64,000 bases of DNA from Rhodobacterales bacterium (GTDB taxonomy: Bacteria; Pseudomonadota; Alphaproteobacteria; Rhodobacterales; CAZPXZ01). The notes beneath the pieces are model-generated. The model made no database searches and was not told the DNA's origin. It saw only the letters and a program-made list of their open reading frames with translations. Both the position numbers and the translations under genes were made by a program. The first letter of the stretch is position 1. Each line of letters opens with the position of its first letter. Shown here piece by piece: positions 13,085 through 63,158 of this stretch. The stretch covers positions 690,837-754,836 of the forward strand of contig OZ244777.1 of the NCBI GenBank assembly GCA_965219495.1, in the 5' to 3' direction.

Positions 13085-13351
13085 ATCCCCCTGAGGCGCG
13101 ACGTTGCGAATATCCCAGCAACTGATTGAATGGAAAATTATATTGTCTGTGCCAAAATACCGGGTTTTGAACCCGGCGCGACGTTTCCGGCCCAGGCGCC
13201 CGGCGCGGAATTCGGCCTCTTGCGCCGTGAATGAGCGGTTGGGGACCGGTTTCGCACGAGTTTCGAGGTTGCCGGCGATCTTCCGCCATGGGGAGGGAGC
13301 CCAGGCCCAGACCGGGGCGCATGCCGACGGCATTGGCTCGGCCAGCCGCAG

Positions 13352-13543
13352 TCAGGCGGCGCGGCGGATGCCTCGGCGCCGCTGATTCTGGATTTTTTCC
13401 CGCTCGGCTCTCTGCAGCGCCAGGCCGATCCGGTGCAGATTGGCGGCAAGGATTGCGAGAGCGACCGTTCGAGCGAAGCCATCCCCGCCGTGTGCGCGGA
13501 CCCGGTCCAGGCCGCGGCATTCCAGGTTGTGGATGGCGGATTC
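13352..13543 (-). pseudogene. IS transposase, 3' exon-equivalent (63 codons)
   Basis: Hand translation gives ESAIHNLECRGLDRVRAHGGDGFARTVALAILAANLHRIGLALQRAEREKIQNQRRRGIRRAA, with a stop at 13352-13354. It continues the protein that breaks off at 16368. Confidence 0.7.
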
Positions 13544-13600
13544 GTCGCGGTAGGAGCGCTGGTTGCCCAGCGCCCCTCCGCACAGATCCGAGCGTGCGCG

Positions 13601-14638
13601 CTAACGCACTCGGCTCCTGCCTCGGGTGTGGACGGCACGAAACCGCTGATCCGGCCATGGGTGAAGGATCCTGATTGGTGGGAAGAAGCGCTGCGTCAAC
13701 TCCGCCAATTGCTCCCATATGCGAAGGGAATTCCCACGCTGGGAGCGACGGCGCAGTTGCTGGAACCAGAGGCTCCTGACGCTTCGCACGAACGCTTGGA
13801 GGAACGCATGGCTGGAGGGAACTGCATAGTATTGCAGCCACCCCCTGAGCACGCGTTGCAGCCATCCGGCTACCTCCTCCGGGTCGTCGTGGCGCCGACG
13901 GCGCAGGACCTCACCGATCCGCTGAAGCGTGCGCCGGGCGCGTTTCGCTGCCGGCTTCCGCCCGAGACTGAAACCGCCCTTTCTTGAGGTTCGGCAGTAA
14001 TGCGTGAACCCCGGAAAATCAAAGGTTTCGGGGCGCCGCTGACCGCGTGAGAGGCGGTCCGCCTTGGCGAAGCGTCCAAACTCGATGCAGCGGGTCTTCC
14101 CGGGATGGAGAGCCAGACCGAACTTGCCCAGCCTTCGTTCAAGGTCGTCAAGGAACTGTTCCGCATCCTGCCGGTGTTGAAATCCAACCACGAAGTCATC
14201 CGCGTAGCGCACGATAACCGCGTCTCCGTTCGCCTCCTGCGGACGCCATTTCCGGTCAAACCAGAGGTCGAGGACGTAGTGCAGGTAAATATTTGCCAAA
14301 ATTGGCGAAACAACCGCTCCCTGGGGAGTTCCCCTGAGGTCGTCCTTCCACTCGCCCCCGTCCATGACGCCAGCGTTCAGCCACTTGGTGATCAACCGAA
14401 TGACCCGCCGGTCTCCGATCCTGTGTTCCAGAAACCGGATCAACCAGTCTCGGTCCAAATTATCGAAGAAACCGCGGATATCGGCGTCAACAATCCAGTT
14501 GACCTTCCGCCGCGCTATACAGGTGGCAAGAGCGTCCAGAGCGTCGTGCGCCCCGCGCTCTGGCCGGAACCCATGGCTGAACCCGAGAAATTCGACCTCG
14601 TAAATCGGGGTAAGGATCGACTCCACCACTGCCTTCTG
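13601..14638 (-). pseudogene. group II intron reverse transcriptase/maturase, C-terminal segment
   Basis: QKAVVESILTPIYEVEFLGFSHGFRPERGAHDAL...GTPQGAVVSPILANIYLH...VRYADDFVVGF...FPGFTHY, plus the maturase X domain (RVLRGWLQYY). No HNH/En domain is present. The stop lies inside domain V. Confidence 0.85.
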
Positions 14639-14644
14639 GACGAT

Positions 14645-15221
14645 AAATGTTGCGCAGCAAGTTATGTTGCGTAGGCTGGGTAACTTGCTGAATGGCACAG
14701 ATAGAGCCCGACTCTCCGCAACATAATCTTTTACGCTCACAAAGATTTTCAGCCCCTTCTTCTCCTTCCACGGCCGGTTCGGACCCGGTTCAGCCACGTC
14801 GCAAAGCGCCAACGCCCTGGCCTTCATCTCGAGATCAATCTCGGCATAGATGTTGGTCGCGTTGATGTTGACGTGGCCAAGCCACGCGCGGACCGTGTTG
14901 ATGTCAACCTTCGCTCGCACCAAGGCGCAGGCGGCCGTGTGCCGAACCACGGGCGGAGTTATCTTCCGCCCGGCCAATGCCGGCATGCTGGCCGCACAAC
15001 GCTCGACAAGGCGATAGACCCCGAACCGGATATAGGCTCTTCGGTGCCTGCTATGGACTGTGTGAATAGTTCTTCGAACATTGTCGTGTCTCCTGATTGT
15101 TGGAGCCACGATCATGCAGACAGGGTGCCGTGAAAGAAATTATGTCGCGCAAAATATGTTTGAACTCTTACCAATCAACAGGTTCCGTACTCTCCGCAAC
15201 ATAACTTGCTGCGCAACATTT
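14645..15221 (-). mobile_element. 577-bp non-autonomous element with perfect 27-bp terminal inverted repeats and a 6-bp flanking direct repeat
   Basis: IR-L at 14645-14671, AAATGTTGCGCAGCAAGTTATGTTGCG, is the exact reverse complement of IR-R at 15195-15221. GACGAT is present at 14639-14644 and at 15222-15227. Removing the element plus one repeat copy restores the RT sequence LEDKIVQKAVVE. Confidence 0.8.
14672..14980 (-). pseudogene. tyrosine recombinase (phage-integrase family) C-terminal fragment inside the mini-element
   Basis: LAGRKITPPVVRHTAACALVRAKVDINTVRAWLGHVNINATNIYAEIDLEMKARALA contains the HxxR and GH boxes and the catalytic Tyr region. There is no N-terminal or core-binding part. 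Confidence 0.6.
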
Positions 15222-15584
15222 GACGATCTTGTCCTCCAGGGCGACAATGCCAAGCGGTCGTGTTCCCCCATCCGGCTTCGGGATTTCAACCCGCAGCGAT
15301 GGGAGCGCTCGATACGCTCCGCTGTGCACACGGTCATGGAGTGCGTGCAAATGCACGTCCAGTTCCTCGCCGTATGCCTCCCAGGTCATCCGGTCAACTC
15401 CGGCCGCAGAGTGCGGGTTCAAAGCATGAAAAGCCCCTCTCAGGACCTCCACCGTGATATGGTGCAGAAGCGCCGTGAGGCGTTCCTTCGGATTCCTCGT
15501 GGCTGCCTGCCGTATCCGGTCCGCCGCTTGTGACACGCTTGCCCGACCCTGCGTCACTTCGGGTTTTCCCCGGTACGGCTTCAA
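15222..15584 (-). pseudogene. group II intron reverse transcriptase/maturase, N-terminal segment
   Basis: MKPYRGKP...ERLTALLHHITVEVLRGAFHALNPHSAAGVDRMTWEAY...RVEIPKPDGGTRPLGIVALEDKIV (RT domains 0-2). It is cut after DKIV by the 577-bp insertion. Confidence 0.85.
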
Positions 15585-16367
15585 GCATCAGGCACCCCAC
15601 AGTTCGGTACGGAGCCTTCCGCAGGTGCGTCGAGGTGAAGACTGACCCGGCCCTACCCTCGATCGGATACTGCGTTTGCTCCGTCCTTCGATGATGCCGC
15701 CGCCAAACTGATGGGGGTTTCCGCCACCGTGTGCGGAGCCATCGGCTGCAGCATCGCCACCTGTGCCCTGAGGCCCTCGCTCCAGCCGGGTTGTGTTGTC
15801 CCGGCCATCAACGCTTATCGGCCTCATCCGCCAGTCTGGAGATCTCCGTTTCATTTCCCGGCACAGCCGGTTATAGACGCGGTCTTTGACATTCAAGGAT
15901 CATCCTGTCTGATCCCCAGACCTTCCGGACTTTCGCTGCTGTACTTTCGAGTATTGCCGCCTTCAATATGCCGGAAGCCCCGGTGCGCGCTCCTCAGTTC
16001 TTCCGCACCGACACTGGCCATCGGGTAGAAAGGAGACCCTTGGCAACTCCAATTACCCCGCAAATCAGCTTCATGCAGGAAGTCCTTTTCGACGCTTGAT
16101 CCGTTCACTCTCGTTACGGCCCTACTCTTTGCTCGCCCCCCGGGCTGATCAGACTCAAGCGGAACCATCTCCACTCCGTCTCCCAGGACTTTTACTTCCG
16201 GGCTTCCAGGTCACCGGGTCACCCCGTGCGCCTGCCGGATATGACTACGGCGCCAAACTGAGAATTGCGCCGGTGGGACTTGCACCCACTAGTACAGCAG
16301 CTAGTCTCGCTGCACCCTTTCCGCCGGACTTGCACCGGCTATCCACACCAGAGTTAGCCTGGCGTAC

Positions 16368-17518
16368 CACCGCCGGATGTTGCCGCCGCGCCGCGGCGAA
16401 CTCGGCGCGCGCCTCGTGCTCCCGCGCTTTCTGCGAAAGAGCGCCCTTCGCCGGCAGCGCGTTGCAGTCCAGCAGCGCGTCCAGCCGCACCCGGTTGGAC
16501 GGGCTGTGGAAGCCCCGGTCGAAGCTGCAGCCCCGCACCGACGGAAACAGGGCGAGGGTCTCCGACAGCAGCGGAACCGCCGCATCGACGTCGTCTTCCG
16601 CCCACGAGATGCGGTGGTGCAGGACCAATTGATGCGGGTCCTCGACGATGCACACCGGAACCCCGCGTTCGACCATGCGCCCGGCCTTGCCCTTCGCGCA
16701 CCAGCGGGTATGCGGCTCGAAGATGGAGAACACCTTCTCTTCATGCGGGATCGCTTCGCCCTGCAGCAGCCGCCGGTCGACCTGATCGATCTGGCGAAGC
16801 GCATGATCCATAAGTCCTTGCACGGCATCGATGTCCCATGTCTCCGCCCCGGCTGCCTCGAGTTCCCGCCGCAGCCGTTCCGCCCGCGCCACCAGCGACC
16901 GGCAAAGCCCCAGGTAAGCGCATACGCGGTCCGGATACCGCCTCTGCCGCCGGGAATTGCGGATCTTGTCGAACAGCCGCTTCACCTGCCGCCGCAGATT
17001 CCGGCTCTGCCGCCAGCCACCAAGCCCGAAGCCAGCTGTGCGGAAATCCGGATCAGGCGCCGCATCGCGTCCCACAGCAAGTTGACGTCGGTCGGATCGT
17101 GCACGTCGGTTTCCACCACAAAGGAATCGGCCCGCGCCCGGAGCGGCGCTTCCGGCGCCTGCCCGAACAACGCGTGGCCCGCCTTCACCACCAGTTCGTT
17201 GATCTCGTTCAGAAGCTCCGGCGTCAGCAGCGAGACATTGCGCACCAGCGTCCGGTGCTCGTACCGGCGATGGTCGTCAAGCCCCGAATGGCCGAGCATC
17301 TCCCGAACCGTCTCGTGGCAATTGGCAAGGTCCTGCAGACGGTCGTCGTCGCACCGGATGCCCTGCTTGAGGGTCGCCAGCACGAAAATCCGCCACAAAT
17401 CCATGCCCGGGCGCCCAAGCCCCCGGTCCACATCCGGAAGAAAATGCGCGTCCAGCAGGTCGAAAACCTGCCGGCGCAACGCTTCGTCGCAGTACAGGTG
17501 CTGGATGCCCCGCAACAC
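16368..17518 (-). pseudogene. IS transposase, 5' exon-equivalent (also carries a 1-nt frameshift near 17020-17035)
   Basis: The ORFs 16982..17518 and 16245..17075 are two frames of one protein. They would join if one G were restored in ...GGCTTGG|TGGCTGG..., giving SAQLASGLGGWRQSRNL. Homology-like sequence stops at ...ARRQHPAV (16368). The N-terminus may extend upstream to about 17650. Confidence 0.7.
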
Positions 17519-18083
17519 CGCCGGGATGTCATCCCGGCAGACCGGGTCAATCGCAATGTCCTCGATGGCGATTTCGCCAAGCCGAACAAACGGCTCCTGG
17601 ATTGCCCTCGCCCTCGTCTCTGCTCCGCCGGAACCAGCGATCCATCGCGAAGATTCCGCCCATCCGACCGATTTCGCCTGAATTTTGCCTGGAATTATAC
17701 GCTTGGGACCAATCTTCGCAACCCAAAACCGACCACAACCTGTTGATATGTAACGAAATTCGGCCTTTTTGCACAGGCACTATATACTAAAGTAACAATA
17801 TCCTTGAATTGGCGCTTCGGCGCCTCTATACTCAGTTGTACTGGAAACAAGGCCGAAAGTGCCGGCTCCGGTGATACGTCTTGCAGCGGGTATTAGCCCG
17901 TTCACGGGTGGGAAATGGCGGGAAACCGCTTCCCGTGGTGCCGGCAAGGGGAAGGCGAAGGATTGGGGGTTGCCCCGCCTCGGCGTGGAACAGTGTCGGG
18001 AGCCCATTGTGACTCTCGTATATAAGTCCCATTAAAGGGAATCCGAAGACCGCGCAAAGAGCGCGGCGCCAAGGAGAAGTTCG

Positions 18084-32128: not shown

Positions 32129-34030
32129 ATTCGCATATATCCTTTGCCAAACAGATGCTTAGGCAGGATTCAAACTGCCCCGTTCATGGAGTCAGTTTGG
32201 TCGGGTCGATTTGCAGGAGTTCGAACGCTTTGGCTTGCAGTTCCGTCGGTTCGGCGAGCAGCGGGAACGCCAGATCCGGGTTCGCCGACAGCGTCACTTC
32301 ATTGCGGGTCAGCGTGGCGAGGTCCGACAACAGCGTCTCCATGCTGTGCACCGGCAGACCTTCCGGGTTTTCCTTTGTGGCGGCTTTGAACCTGGCGCGG
32401 TCGGAGACGTCGGACTTCGCGACCGGGGAAGATCGCTTCCGTCTTGCGCCATCGCGGTCGTCGTCCTCGAACAGGATCGGGGCGAGGCACTTGCGCATGC
32501 GCCATTCGACGTGCCAGGCCAGCATGCACAGGAAGACGTGGGCGCGGACGTGGTCCTCGCTGTAGACGTAAACCGGGCGCACGTCGAGGTTGGATTTCAT
32601 CCCTCGGAACGCGCGTTCCACCGTGGACAACGATTTATAGGCCTCCACCGCCTCCGGCGCGGCGAGGGCGCCGGCCTCGAGGCTGGTGCGGATCACGTAG
32701 ACGCCGTCGAGGCGTGCTTCGTCGGCGATCCGCTCCGCGTTGCGCGCCCAGGCGATGTGGCCATCCGAGATCTCGATATCGAAGTGCTTGGCCACCTTGC
32801 GGCGGTTGATGTCCCGGCCGACCCGGCGGTTGATCGCGTCGCGTCCATGCAAGCGCGCGCGCGGGCTGCGGACGGCCTTGGCGATGTCTTCCAGGACGCG
32901 TTCGGTGGCCCGCAGCAGATCCTCCCGCTTGCGCGCCCGCTCCGCCTTCAGGCGCGGATTGAAGCACACGATCAGGCGCTCGCCCGGAAAGTCCGGACTG
33001 GAAACCTCCGCCACCCCGTCGGCGACCAGCTCCTCCGGACGAAGCGGTGCCTTCCCGTGGGTTCCGTTCGGGTTCTCCGGACCGGGGGCGCGCGTCAGTT
33101 GGCGGATGTGAGGGGTGCGCAGCGCCGAGATCCAGTCCAGCCCGGCCGGAAGCAGGTCGTCGCGGATGCGCGCCGCCGTCACCATGCCGCGATCGCCGAC
33201 AAAGGCGATGCGGGAGAGCCCGAACCGCTGCTTGACCTTCGCCACCTGGACGGCGACGGTCGCCGGATCCCCGGTACCGCCTGCGAACACCTCCACCGCC
33301 ACCGGGCAGCCGTTGGCGGCGCACAGCAGCCCGTAAACGATCTGCTTCTTGCCCTTCTTTCCGTCACGGTTGTGGCCGAACCCGGCAAGCGGACAGCAGC
33401 GTCCCTCCAGAAAACTCGACGTCACGTCATACAAGAGGAGCGTCCCGTCCCGGAGGTGCCGGGCGGCGAGGCTGCGCTCGATCCATCGCTGGCGGGCCCG
33501 CAGCCAGTCCAGCATGCCCAGCATGCCCAGCATCTCGTTGCCGGTGACCGCCCCGAGGCCAAGAACGGCGCCCAGGCTGGAGGAGGCGGTCGCCGGCGAC
33601 AGCCGCCTTGCGGTGGCCAGTTTCGAGCAGGGTTCGACGACCCGCGCGGCGACCGCAGCGAACGCCAGGCTGCGCTCCCGGCCCGGCTTGCGGTGCAGCA
33701 GCCGCTCGAAACCGAGTTTCCGCATGGTGCCGGCCACCGCCGCCACATGTCCATGCGGTAGCGAACGGCGCAGGGACACGGCGTCGTGGATGTCCGGGAA
33801 AACGGCGCCACCTTTAAGCACAAGGCGGATGCCCTCGACGAGGTGGGGCTCCAGTTTGGAGAGATTGCAGAGGGTGCGTCGTTTGACGCGTCCGTTTTCC
33901 CTCCAGGACTGCCGGATGAGCGGCGTGGGGACGCTTCCGTGGTTGGGAATGTATTCGACGTAGGTTGACTTCATGGAGTCAGTATACGTGAAATGAAAGG
34001 CTATATCAAGGGAACCTATCCAGGAAATCA
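32129..34030 (-). mobile_element. second IS1634-family insertion sequence; ends poorly defined
   Basis: Encloses an intact transposase. The only IR candidates are weak: TGGGATCAATTCGCATATATCCTTTG near 32120-32150, versus the reverse complement of 33996-34030. Confidence 0.5.
32184..33974 (-). CDS. IS1634-family transposase (596 aa)
   Basis: MKSTYVEYIPNHGSVPTPLIRQSWRENGRVKRRTLCNLSKL, LYDVTSSFLEG, GHNRDGKKGKKQIVYGLL, FVGDRGM and VERAFR motifs. The start is set at ATG 33974. Confidence 0.85.
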   Translation of the reverse strand: MKSTYVEYIPNHGSVPTPLIRQSWRENGRVKRRTLCNLSKLEPHLVEGIRLVLKGGAVFPDIHDAVSLRRSLPHGHVAAVAGTMRKLGFERLLHRKPGRERSLAFAAVAARVVEPCSKLATARRLSPATASSSLGAVLGLGAVTGNEMLGMLGMLDWLRARQRWIERSLAARHLRDGTLLLYDVTSSFLEGRCCPLAGFGHNRDGKKGKKQIVYGLLCAANGCPVAVEVFAGGTGDPATVAVQVAKVKQRFGLSRIAFVGDRGMVTAARIRDDLLPAGLDWISALRTPHIRQLTRAPGPENPNGTHGKAPLRPEELVADGVAEVSSPDFPGERLIVCFNPRLKAERARKREDLLRATERVLEDIAKAVRSPRARLHGRDAINRRVGRDINRRKVAKHFDIEISDGHIAWARNAERIADEARLDGVYVIRTSLEAGALAAPEAVEAYKSLSTVERAFRGMKSNLDVRPVYVYSEDHVRAHVFLCMLAWHVEWRMRKCLAPILFEDDDRDGARRKRSSPVAKSDVSDRARFKAATKENPEGLPVHSMETLLSDLATLTRNEVTLSANPDLAFPLLAEPTELQAKAFELLQIDPTKLTP

Positions 34031-34669
34031 CACCACATCGTGTTATTACATGGAGTCCAATGTCAGGAGGAAACGACGTCGCTTCCGTAGAAAACCGTGA
34101 AACCTCAATCGAATAGGGTCGTGCTGACAGTTATTTCCTAAACGAAGTTCCGTCTAACGCGGTCCCGCCGCCATGCAGGCCCGGCGACGGGCTTGATGCT
34201 TTTGTTCAGCCGGCGCTCCGGTTCCGGCTCCTCGCCCATGAGCAAGTGCAGGTTCTCCCAGGTTTTCTGGCGACCCTTTCCGTGGCTCTGCGCCGGCCTT
34301 CGACACCGGACGACCCTTGACGCCTCGCCGGTGGTGTCGCTGCCGGTGCTGCCCCCAAGTGGTTGAAGGTTGAAAAGGCGTCATCATTGTGCATGTCGAG
34401 GCTGGTTATCGCCTTTCATCTCCCGCTGTCTACGCTTCACAACGCACGTCGCCATGCGCCATGCAAGACTCGCTCCCGGCTGGCGGGCTGCGCCGTTGCC
34501 GAGCGGGCGTCGGTCCCGCTGGGTCGCGTTGAATGGATTCAGCTCATGTCATCCCCCTCCCCAGGACTTATCCTGGCGCAATCAACTATTGCAAGTAATC
34601 CCCAATGGAAAAGCCGGCGTCGCACCGGTACTTGTCAAACACATCGATGGCGGAACCGTTGCGCCGCGG

Positions 34670-62891: not shown

Positions 62892-63158
62892 TCAAGTCAA
62901 GAACCGCCGCCACGGGAAGCGAGCGCATCCCGCCACTCCCCACCCGTGAACGGGACAAGTCCGATCGCAGAATATTCCCGCATTGACATCTCGATCCAGC
63001 ACCAACTCGCAGGCCGGACAGGCGTGGACGCGAACAGCTAGATCAGCGCCTCGGCGCAGCATCCCGAATTGCGCGAATTCCCGCTCGGGCACCGAACCGA
63101 GAGCCACTTGGCCATAGGCAAGGTATGCTTTGCAAGAATGCCAGAAACCAACAAGCAC
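62892..63158 (-). pseudogene. TnpB (IS200/IS605 OrfB) C-terminal relic
   Basis: ...AYGQVALGSVPEREFAQ...VHACPACELVLDRDVNAGI shows the zinc-ribbon plus DRD.NA motif of the TnpB C-terminus. The RuvC N-terminal parts are absent. Confidence 0.5.

Follow-up and report, generated by a model that had tools for sequence, protein, structure and literature searches.

RmInt1 of Sinorhizobium meliloti is reportedly a group II intron without an endonuclease domain, with its homing site in the transposase gene of the insertion sequence (IS) ISRm2011-2 and with many copies of that IS occupied. Bacteria and archaea have twintrons as well as group II introns that lack an open reading frame (ORF) and home into other group II introns, with examples in Methanosarcina and Thermosynechococcus. 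Recombinase-in-trio (RIT) elements carry three adjacent, overlapping tyrosine recombinase genes (ritA, ritB and ritC) and are, according to later papers, reported on in Van Houdt 2009 and Ricker 2013. The transposition of RIT elements has never been reproduced in the laboratory, and their target specificity and mode of movement have not been tested (PMC10214605, 2023). Here we analysed a stretch of 64,000 nucleotides (nt) from a Rhodobacterales bacterium (contig OZ244777.1, positions 690,837 to 754,836; hereafter the window), in which representatives of all these element types lie inside one another. An IS of the ISNCY family holds a group II intron (named B) in its transposase gene, and B in turn holds a 577-bp derivative of a RIT (named mini-RIT) in its reverse transcriptase (RT) gene and the 5' part of a second, ORF-less group II intron (named C) in its domain I.

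We are confident that four mobile elements (IS, B, mini-RIT and C), all of them inactive, are stacked in the region. All elements of the nested region lie on the minus strand of the window (Table 1), and the junctions, empty sites, family assignments and lesions are shown directly by the sequences compared. A first-pass annotation of the same DNA had proposed a nest of three levels, namely an IS, a group II intron and an inverted-repeat element. A matching empty site was found for each of these levels, and all of its coordinates were reproduced. None of the layers is of a new kind, and genomes rich in repeats commonly contain nested insertions; the region is thus a well-resolved example and no new system. 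The mini-RIT and the 6-bp footprint of RIT insertion are the most useful leads from it, and the overall novelty is low.

Table 1. Coordinates of the features of the nested region in the window, from the 5' to the 3' end of the minus strand.
Feature	Position	Strand	Evidence
Left IS flank TATATA, putative target-site duplication	17781..17786	-	TAnnTA rule in relatives; L001
IS left arm: left inverted repeat GTGCCTGTGCAAAAAGG..., leader, transposase codons to ...RRQHPAV	16368..17780	-	93% nt identity to L001, L013; NF033593
Intron B nt 1-52: 5' GUACG, first two domain I stem-loops	16316..16367	-	98% identical to 12 copies; L001/L013 empty sites
5' 760 nt of intron C, starting GUGCAGCGAG	15556..16315	-	RF02003; similarity to L006, L009; EBS1/flank co-variation
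Intron B RT from about codon 46 to ...ALEDKIV; first ATCGTC copy at 15227-15222	15222..15555	-	97.3% identical to B copies; P0121 alignment
Mini-RIT: 27-bp repeats AAATGTTGCGCAGCAAGTTATGTTGCG, ritA ribosome-binding site and first codons, internal deletion, ritC end, subterminal repeat	14645..15221	-	Repeats; PF00589; L010; pEJ01
Rest of intron B: second ATCGTC copy at 14644-14639, RT from QKAVV through YADD to the maturase domain, domains V/VI, ...CCGCGAC	13544..14644	-	96.3% identical to B copies
IS right arm: C-terminus ESAIHNLECRGLD...GIRRAA, stop at 13354-13352, 3' untranslated part, right inverted repeat (...GGCACAGACAA)	13143..13543	-	93% nt identity to L001, L013
Right IS flank TATAAT	13137..13142	-	Positional homology with L001, L013; family duplication rule

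The transposase enabled us to assign the host IS to its family. In translation, the transposase frame runs as ...AEFAAARRQHPAV up to 16368 and picks up again at 13543 with ESAIHNLECRGLDRVRAHGGDGFARTVALAILAANLHRIG (ESAIHNLECRGLDRV...). After repair of one frameshift and removal of 16367-13544, the protein matches the NCBIfam profile NF033593 (ISNCY transposase) at profile positions 1-443 of 444 with 421.7 bits, above the cutoff of 325. Among 5.8 billion proteins searched, 2471 relatives were found, of which 12 intact ones were aligned with the repaired window protein. All 12 read RRxHPA(V/I)ESAI without a gap at the intron junction, and the DNA of two intron-free IS copies (L001, a contig from an ENA metagenome, and L013, a contig of a Paracoccaceae metagenome-assembled genome (MAG)) gives the same boundaries, which bears out the precise in-frame join of HPAV to ESAI put forward in the first-pass annotation. 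The candidate DDE residues, namely the acidic ones of VVETDVH (second D of the triad's first motif being the conserved D), SFDRGF (D) and AVESAI (E), vary little or not at all across the 13 sequences and are presumably catalytic. By homology with L001 and L013, the IS termini in the window lie at 17780 and 13143, and the terminal inverted repeats GTGCCTGTGC... and ...GGCACAGACAA are present. Like the ISNCY family, whose profile it matches over the full length, the IS has GTG...CAC repeats; its relatives, in four multi-copy sets in MAG genomes, have termini GTG...CAC flanked by perfect 6-bp duplications of the form TAnnTA, and the L001 IS carries TATGTA at both flanks. The intact IS measures about 1.83 kb, and its neighbours in the window are an MFS transporter gene on one side and the next gene on the other.

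Unlike intact ISNCY members, the window copy is a pseudogene with no start codon, a 7-nt deletion and an intron. Comparison with L001 and L013 showed that a loss of 8 nt (6 + 2) around 17615-17609 removes the ATG of the conserved MRAIQ start, and that the deletion at about 17031, with a net frame change of -1, has taken away one unit of the direct repeat CTTCGGC/CTTCGGG. The frameshift noted near this position beforehand is therefore real as a net -1 lesion, but it is not a 1-nt indel, and the loss of the start codon had been missed. The L013 copy has an intact transposase ORF, and its C-terminus is identical to that of the window. The window's genome and its relatives contain many IS copies (the P0002 cluster), of which P0245 is intact, P0242 is internally deleted, and P0241, which lies on the window's own contig, shows the same frameshift by 7-nt deletion. 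The presence of shared lesions in IS copies at several places suggests that defective copies are still being duplicated.

The intron-free IS DNA of L001 and L013 reads CATCCGGCGGTA/GAATCCGCC without a gap (that is, ...GCGGTA/GAATCC..., slashes marking junctions here and below), and the window reads CATCCGGCGGTG/GTACGCC...CCGCGAC/GAATCCGCC at the same site, with CCTACCGCGAC as the 3' end of the intron. Since these empty sites fix the junctions, the insert comprises 16367-13544, or 2824 nt; a G shared at the intron junctions allows both boundaries to be moved by 1 nt. The insertion point lies between HPAV and ESAI, directly before the conserved glutamate. At least five other IS copies (P0002, P0244, P0248, P0249 and L013 copy 1) carry intron B at the same codon, which marks the codon as a recurrent homing site, and none of 79 more distant ISNCY loci has it.

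The recognition of this site can be followed in L004, a contig from a related strain that covers the same chromosomal locus with 98.3% nt identity. Nucleotides 188-193 of its intron B, the candidate exon-binding site 1 (EBS1), read CACCGC and form 6/6 Watson-Crick pairs with GCGGTG of the IS, and 11 intron B copies at other sites have the candidate EBS1 CTCCGT opposite GCGGGG. Two of the roughly 12 substitutions in 500 nt that separate L004 from the other B copies lie in the EBS1 hexamer. Judged from sequence, the site between HPAV and ESAI is a recurrent homing site of one B sublineage, whose candidate EBS1 appears to have changed to match it. At the IS site, inspection by eye gave no convincing pairing of intron-binding site 2 (IBS2) with EBS2 of B. 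The first-pass annotation had already drawn a comparison with RmInt1 in ISRm2011-2, and this comparison is apt. Like RmInt1, B is endonuclease-less and homes in an IS transposase gene, many copies of the IS are occupied, and its EBS1/IBS1 pairing fits the IS. Unlike RmInt1, B has an ISNCY-type host and starts with GUACG, most related B copies are arranged head to tail or occupy domain VI of a different intron, and the B copy of the window has been gutted by two further insertions and a deletion. B at this codon thus makes a second RmInt1-like pairing of an intron with an IS.

The RT protein of intron B, repaired across the mini-element, matches TIGR04416 (group II RT/maturase) with 347.8 bits against a cutoff of 300; Pfam RVT_1 and GIIM also match, and an endonuclease domain is absent. 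The YADD motif is encoded at 14206-14195 and the stop codon lies at 13603-13601. An intact RT (P0121, 97% identical) reads ALEDKIVQKAVVE and aligns gap-free where the window RT is interrupted, in agreement with the cut between DKIV and QKAVV described before. Domain V (13616-13585) is a hairpin with an AGC triad and a 2-nt bulge, and domain VI (13581-13547) has a single bulged A at 13551, followed by 7 nt to the 3' end. The last 82 nt of the intron fold with -49.5 kcal/mol (z = -4.84), in support of the two hairpins and the bulged A as annotated.

Both ends of B were set by 12 full copies from related metagenome contigs, which are nearly identical, 1921 nt long, and run from GUACGCCAGG... to ...CCUACCGCGAC. 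The window matches this reference at nt 1-52 (16367-16316) and from nt 493 on (15555 downstream) and nowhere between, so that it lacks B nt 53-492, the part with domains I-III and the first ~45 codons of the RT. L004 and all other B copies have 440-441 nt between those points, with RF02005 (D1D4-6) scores of 157-163 bits (L004, 163 bits). B in the window is a defective copy of a genuine intron: the ribozyme core is absent, and the RT gene is truncated and interrupted. That the maturase is dead and the IS disabled, as proposed earlier, is confirmed. The expected failure of splicing also stands, but the dead maturase is an incomplete cause of it, since the ribozyme core itself has been lost and C stands in the place of B nt 53-492. 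The transposase mRNA cannot be restored by splicing.

The usual location of the full B copies is domain VI of another intron, where they follow GGAUCUGYGCGGGG. Head-to-tail tandem arrays of B were observed as well, with three copies in L008 (3422-7263) and further cases in L009/L010 and in L005 (5343). These arrays fit the insertion of a new copy between the 5' exon and the copy already in place, since the intron and the 3' exon alike begin with G. Plasmids searched with the 5' 812 nt of the intron yielded no useful match.

The 577-bp element in the RT gene has perfect 27-bp terminal inverted repeats, with 0 matches in 100 shuffles. ATCGTC stands on both sides of it, and the empty site in B copies holds one ATCGTC. 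Each end has the arrangement ATGTTGCG-N8-TATGTTGCG, which recurs a third time, inverted, some 60 nt further in. The left part of the element matches the RIT of L010 upstream of and at the start of its first recombinase gene, and the right part matches the end of the third recombinase gene and the C-terminal part only of Pfam PF00589. Of the three genes of a RIT, the element thus retains only the start of ritA, as an ORF of 40 codons, and the final ~85 codons of ritC. The best plasmid matches are third genes of overlapping recombinase trios, e.g. on Rhodobacter xanthinilyticus pEJ01, and further ones lie on Cupriavidus necator pHG1, a plasmid rich in RIT elements (PMC3414803). The 577-bp element is therefore an internally deleted RIT that has kept all the repeats and no intact recombinase. 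Its inverted repeats and boundaries had been described correctly in the first-pass annotation, but it is a RIT deletion derivative and no anonymous miniature inverted-repeat transposable element (MITE). It is nevertheless MITE-like in being short, with inverted repeats, a flanking duplication, more than one copy and no gene for transposition.

Like RITs, the mini-RIT has paired ATGTTGCG terminal motifs, the start of ritA with the end of ritC, and a match to the third gene of pEJ01. Unlike RITs, it is as short as 577 bp and without an intact recombinase gene; at least two copies of it exist, and both its empty and its filled sites are known, with a 6-bp duplication. The second copy, of 588 bp and 97.8% identity, was found in L215/L216, and its product P0258 is encoded on the window's own contig. 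As it lacks an intact recombinase, the mini-RIT could move only with RitABC supplied from elsewhere. We propose tentatively, and at somewhat below an even chance, that it represents a previously undescribed class of non-autonomous RIT derivatives mobilised in trans by RitABC and that, together with the full RIT described below, it gives the first base-pair evidence for a 6-bp duplication by RITs. As a two-ended derivative, it defines the cis sequences likely sufficient for RIT movement; if the proposal is true, it would be a minimal substrate for the RIT transposition assay that has never yet been achieved. An exact 25-nt scan of JGI metagenomes for its inverted repeat returned nothing. A large mini-RIT family was also considered on the basis of short RitC-fragment proteins (P0258-P0363, 106/106 short, 64-200 amino acids) and was rejected, as each of the four loci inspected (L217-L220) turned out to have only one end, being a remnant of a RIT right end. 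Two of these remnants adjoin IS66 transposase genes.

The terminal arrangement of the mini-RIT is also present in L010, in pEJ01 and in RITs of JGI metagenomes, where a degenerate RIT-terminus pattern occurs in more than 120 contigs, about 20 of them two-ended with ends 3.1-5.6 kb apart. A full RIT of 3.7 kb, with recombinases of 515, 307 and 336 amino acids, occupies one fixed position in the palindromic loop of B domain V (GCGTTAACGC) in L006, L007 and L011 (7205-10913). Compared with uninterrupted B, which provides the empty site, it is flanked by the 6-bp duplication CGTTAA. For two RIT-type insertions, both the empty site and a duplication of 6 bp are thus known, and the 6-bp rule rests on these two only; in eight two-ended full RITs for which empty sites were not available, no flanking duplication was evident, and the repeats were often 8 nt longer and included an additional outward-facing motif. 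The usual stagger between the cleavage sites of tyrosine recombinases is likewise 6 bp. A second RIT is nested in the domain V RIT in L009/L010 (L009 9127 onward). Many RITs (L095, L103, L127, L010 12134-12170, L093 360-392) have an extra outward TTATGTTG 8 nt past one terminus, and this extra motif makes a CAACAT-N8-TTATGTTG palindrome, like a complete tyrosine-recombinase core site.

JGI contigs also yielded short derivatives with a RIT terminus at both ends: L100 2898-3302 (405 bp), L119 218-622 (405 bp), L165 3851-4256 (406 bp), L158 661-930 (270 bp) and L184 196-1779 (1584 bp). Non-autonomous RIT derivatives may be widespread, given these short derivatives in unrelated contigs. A general association of RITs with group II introns was considered and rejected, as an RT gene lies near only 1/120 of the RIT-terminus contigs; the association seen in loci that had been fetched via their RT is thus an ascertainment bias. 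The literature searched makes no mention of RITs together with group II introns.

In place of B nt 53-492, the window holds 760 nt unrelated to B. RF02003 (group-II-D1D4-4) matches at 16291-16109 with 54.8 bits against a gathering score of 49, as the sole intron model above threshold in the region. The 760 nt share 77-78% identity with L006 387-1149 and L009 2670-3425, and the similarity begins at the same base (GUGCAGCGAG) in three differing upstream contexts. The 5' end is GUGCAG, and the first 45 nt copy the 5' architecture of B, with a GUxxG start, a stem-loop, and a second stem-loop capped by GGUGCAAGUCC. In a hypervariable loop, the candidate EBS1 CCUUUC (16033-16028) forms 6/6 Watson-Crick pairs with the 5' flank GAAAGG; the corresponding loops elsewhere face their own 5' flanks, with GCCCCC/GGGGGU in L009 and a U-rich loop/GAGGGA in L006. 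In both L006 and L009, C has no RT gene and runs on for about 750 nt, where a domain V-like hairpin is found complete. In the window, C breaks off within this hairpin (...GAAGCCGUACCGGGGAAAACCCGAAGU) and abuts the RT gene of B without homology. L004 lacks C and has the normal 441-nt B segment there. A second IS copy on the window's own contig (P0002) reads ...CKSGGK/GAARLAAVLVGESPTGAILSLAP, passing from B nt 1-52 into C at the same point. Like the inner introns of twintrons, C is ORF-less, lies inside a group II intron and has an EBS1 that fits the host-intron sequence; unlike in twintrons, C is 3'-truncated, the B core is deleted, and neither intron can splice.

Several observations weigh against the reading of four stacked elements. 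The flanks of the window IS, TATATA and TATAAT, are identical at 4/6 positions only. Intron B has the 5' end GUACG in 13/13 copies, off the GUGYG consensus (the 3' end is ...GAC), and RF00029 aligns to the 75 nt of its domains V/VI with 34.6 bits (E = 3.8e-4 in 5.4 kb), below the gathering score of 40; the covariance check of these domains thus gave an alignment, but not one above threshold. The EBS1 argument for B draws on few independent contexts with two target types, and that for C on three contexts only. The C part of the reading is less secure than the rest: RF00029 found no match even at E <= 1 on its domain V-like hairpin in L006; that hairpin, complete by eye, folded no better than shuffled sequence, and a convincing domain VI was not seen there; and no complete, cleanly bounded copy was recovered, so that the 3' end and ORF-less status rest on two related loci. 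The assembly is of a metagenome type and rich in repeated introns, and a chimeric consensus at 16315 and 15556 is conceivable. The 760-nt segment might accordingly have arisen when B recombined, or switched template, with a related intron, or else from assembly chimerism, and the whole would then be one mosaic intron and no twintron remnant. The 5' junction does fall where the two ribozymes are alike (B ...GGAAAGG/AAGGUGUAACGAG versus C GUGCAGCGAG), L004 is 98.3% identical on both sides of the segment and lacks it, and the source genomes are full of intron repeats. We consider a mosaic unlikely, however, because the similarity to C has one and the same starting base behind three unrelated upstream sequences, the C loop complements the 5' flank of each copy, as expected of an independently homing intron, and the 3' junction between C domain V and the B RT gene has no homology. 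The identical B/C junction in P0002, present a second time in the genome, also argues against a local assembly error. It is hardly plausible that the hybrid intron still splices, joining the C 5' site and domains I-IV to B domains V/VI and leaving 52 nt of B in the mRNA. The C 5' end with its domain I motifs and the B domains V/VI are intact, but no maturase is encoded, the 52 extra nt would shift the frame, and C domain I would have to be compatible with B domain V. Even if it did splice, the two further transposase lesions would leave no function restored. The mini-element could likewise be an ordinary MITE moved by a DDE transposase, with the recombinase fragment as a captured passenger, as perfect inverted repeats with a 6-bp direct duplication are a MITE signature and full RITs examined in metagenome contigs showed no obvious duplication. 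This origin is very improbable: the ATGTTGCG-N8-TATGTTGCG termini and the inner third copy match three-recombinase elements exactly, the interior is collinear with the ritA start and ritC end of a RIT, the full RIT with a known empty site made a 6-bp duplication too, and no DDE element with such ends was found.

For the four-element stack, we infer an order of events together with entry of the introns by retrohoming, mobilisation of the mini-RIT in trans and a single deletion at the origin of the C/B junction. The ISNCY-family IS would have inserted between the MFS transporter gene and the next gene, and intron B, which has no endonuclease domain, would have entered the transposase gene via EBS1 recognition of GCGGUG. 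The 577-bp RIT derivative would then have entered the B RT gene with duplication of ATCGTC, and C may have retrohomed into B domain I after nt 52, with its EBS1 CCUUUC on GAAAGG. A later deletion, starting in the middle of C domain V, would have taken away both the 3' end of C and B nt 53-492. The window and L004 have the IS, the 7-nt deletion, B and the mini-RIT in common, and C with the core deletion is found only in the window. As L004 lacks only these, they are probably the latest change, either arisen in place or converted from the P0002 copy. The order of the earlier events is not fixed by the nesting, and the insertion chronology that the first-pass annotation read from it is weaker than claimed there: in L215/L216 the junction CAACATTT/ATCGTCCAG is the same as in the window and adjoins the B 3' half with an IS4-like transposase 3' exon. 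With the intron/mini-RIT junction present at another genomic site, a chronology based on nesting should be taken with care, and two readings fit, namely that B carried the mini-RIT before its arrival at one of these sites or that the mini-RIT repeatedly targets this RT sequence. Under a different order, which is possible but rather doubtful, the mini-RIT entered B elsewhere and the composite reached the IS by retrohoming with RT supplied in trans, by IS transposition or by gene conversion. In favour of this, the junction stands beside a different 3' exon, the contig of the window also encodes P0258 of the L215-type copy, group II introns are generally known to tolerate cargo in domain IV, and the 7-nt deletion recurs in IS copies at several places (P0241), where dead copies get duplicated. 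The L215 locus is rearranged, however, with the mini-RIT inverted and unrelated DNA at its other flank, and RITs may be site-specific for this RT sequence and have inserted independently; the full RIT has one fixed position in B domain V in L006, L007 and L011.

Two minor observations concern other parts of the window. At 34294-34570 (minus strand) lies the 5' part of another group II intron (RF02005, 92.8 bits), with its 5' end near 34570 (...UUGAU/UGCGCCAGGAUAAG). No RT gene follows behind it, and the ORF of a 615-amino-acid DDE transposase lies directly next to it (32184-34031, minus strand); what is left here seems to be the remnant of an intron that another IS has cut. A repeat of about 70-170 nt (80-84% identical) is found beside the IS at 17879-17946 and again 45 kb off at 62904-63067, and the same repeat adjoins the IS in L013 (3257-3430).

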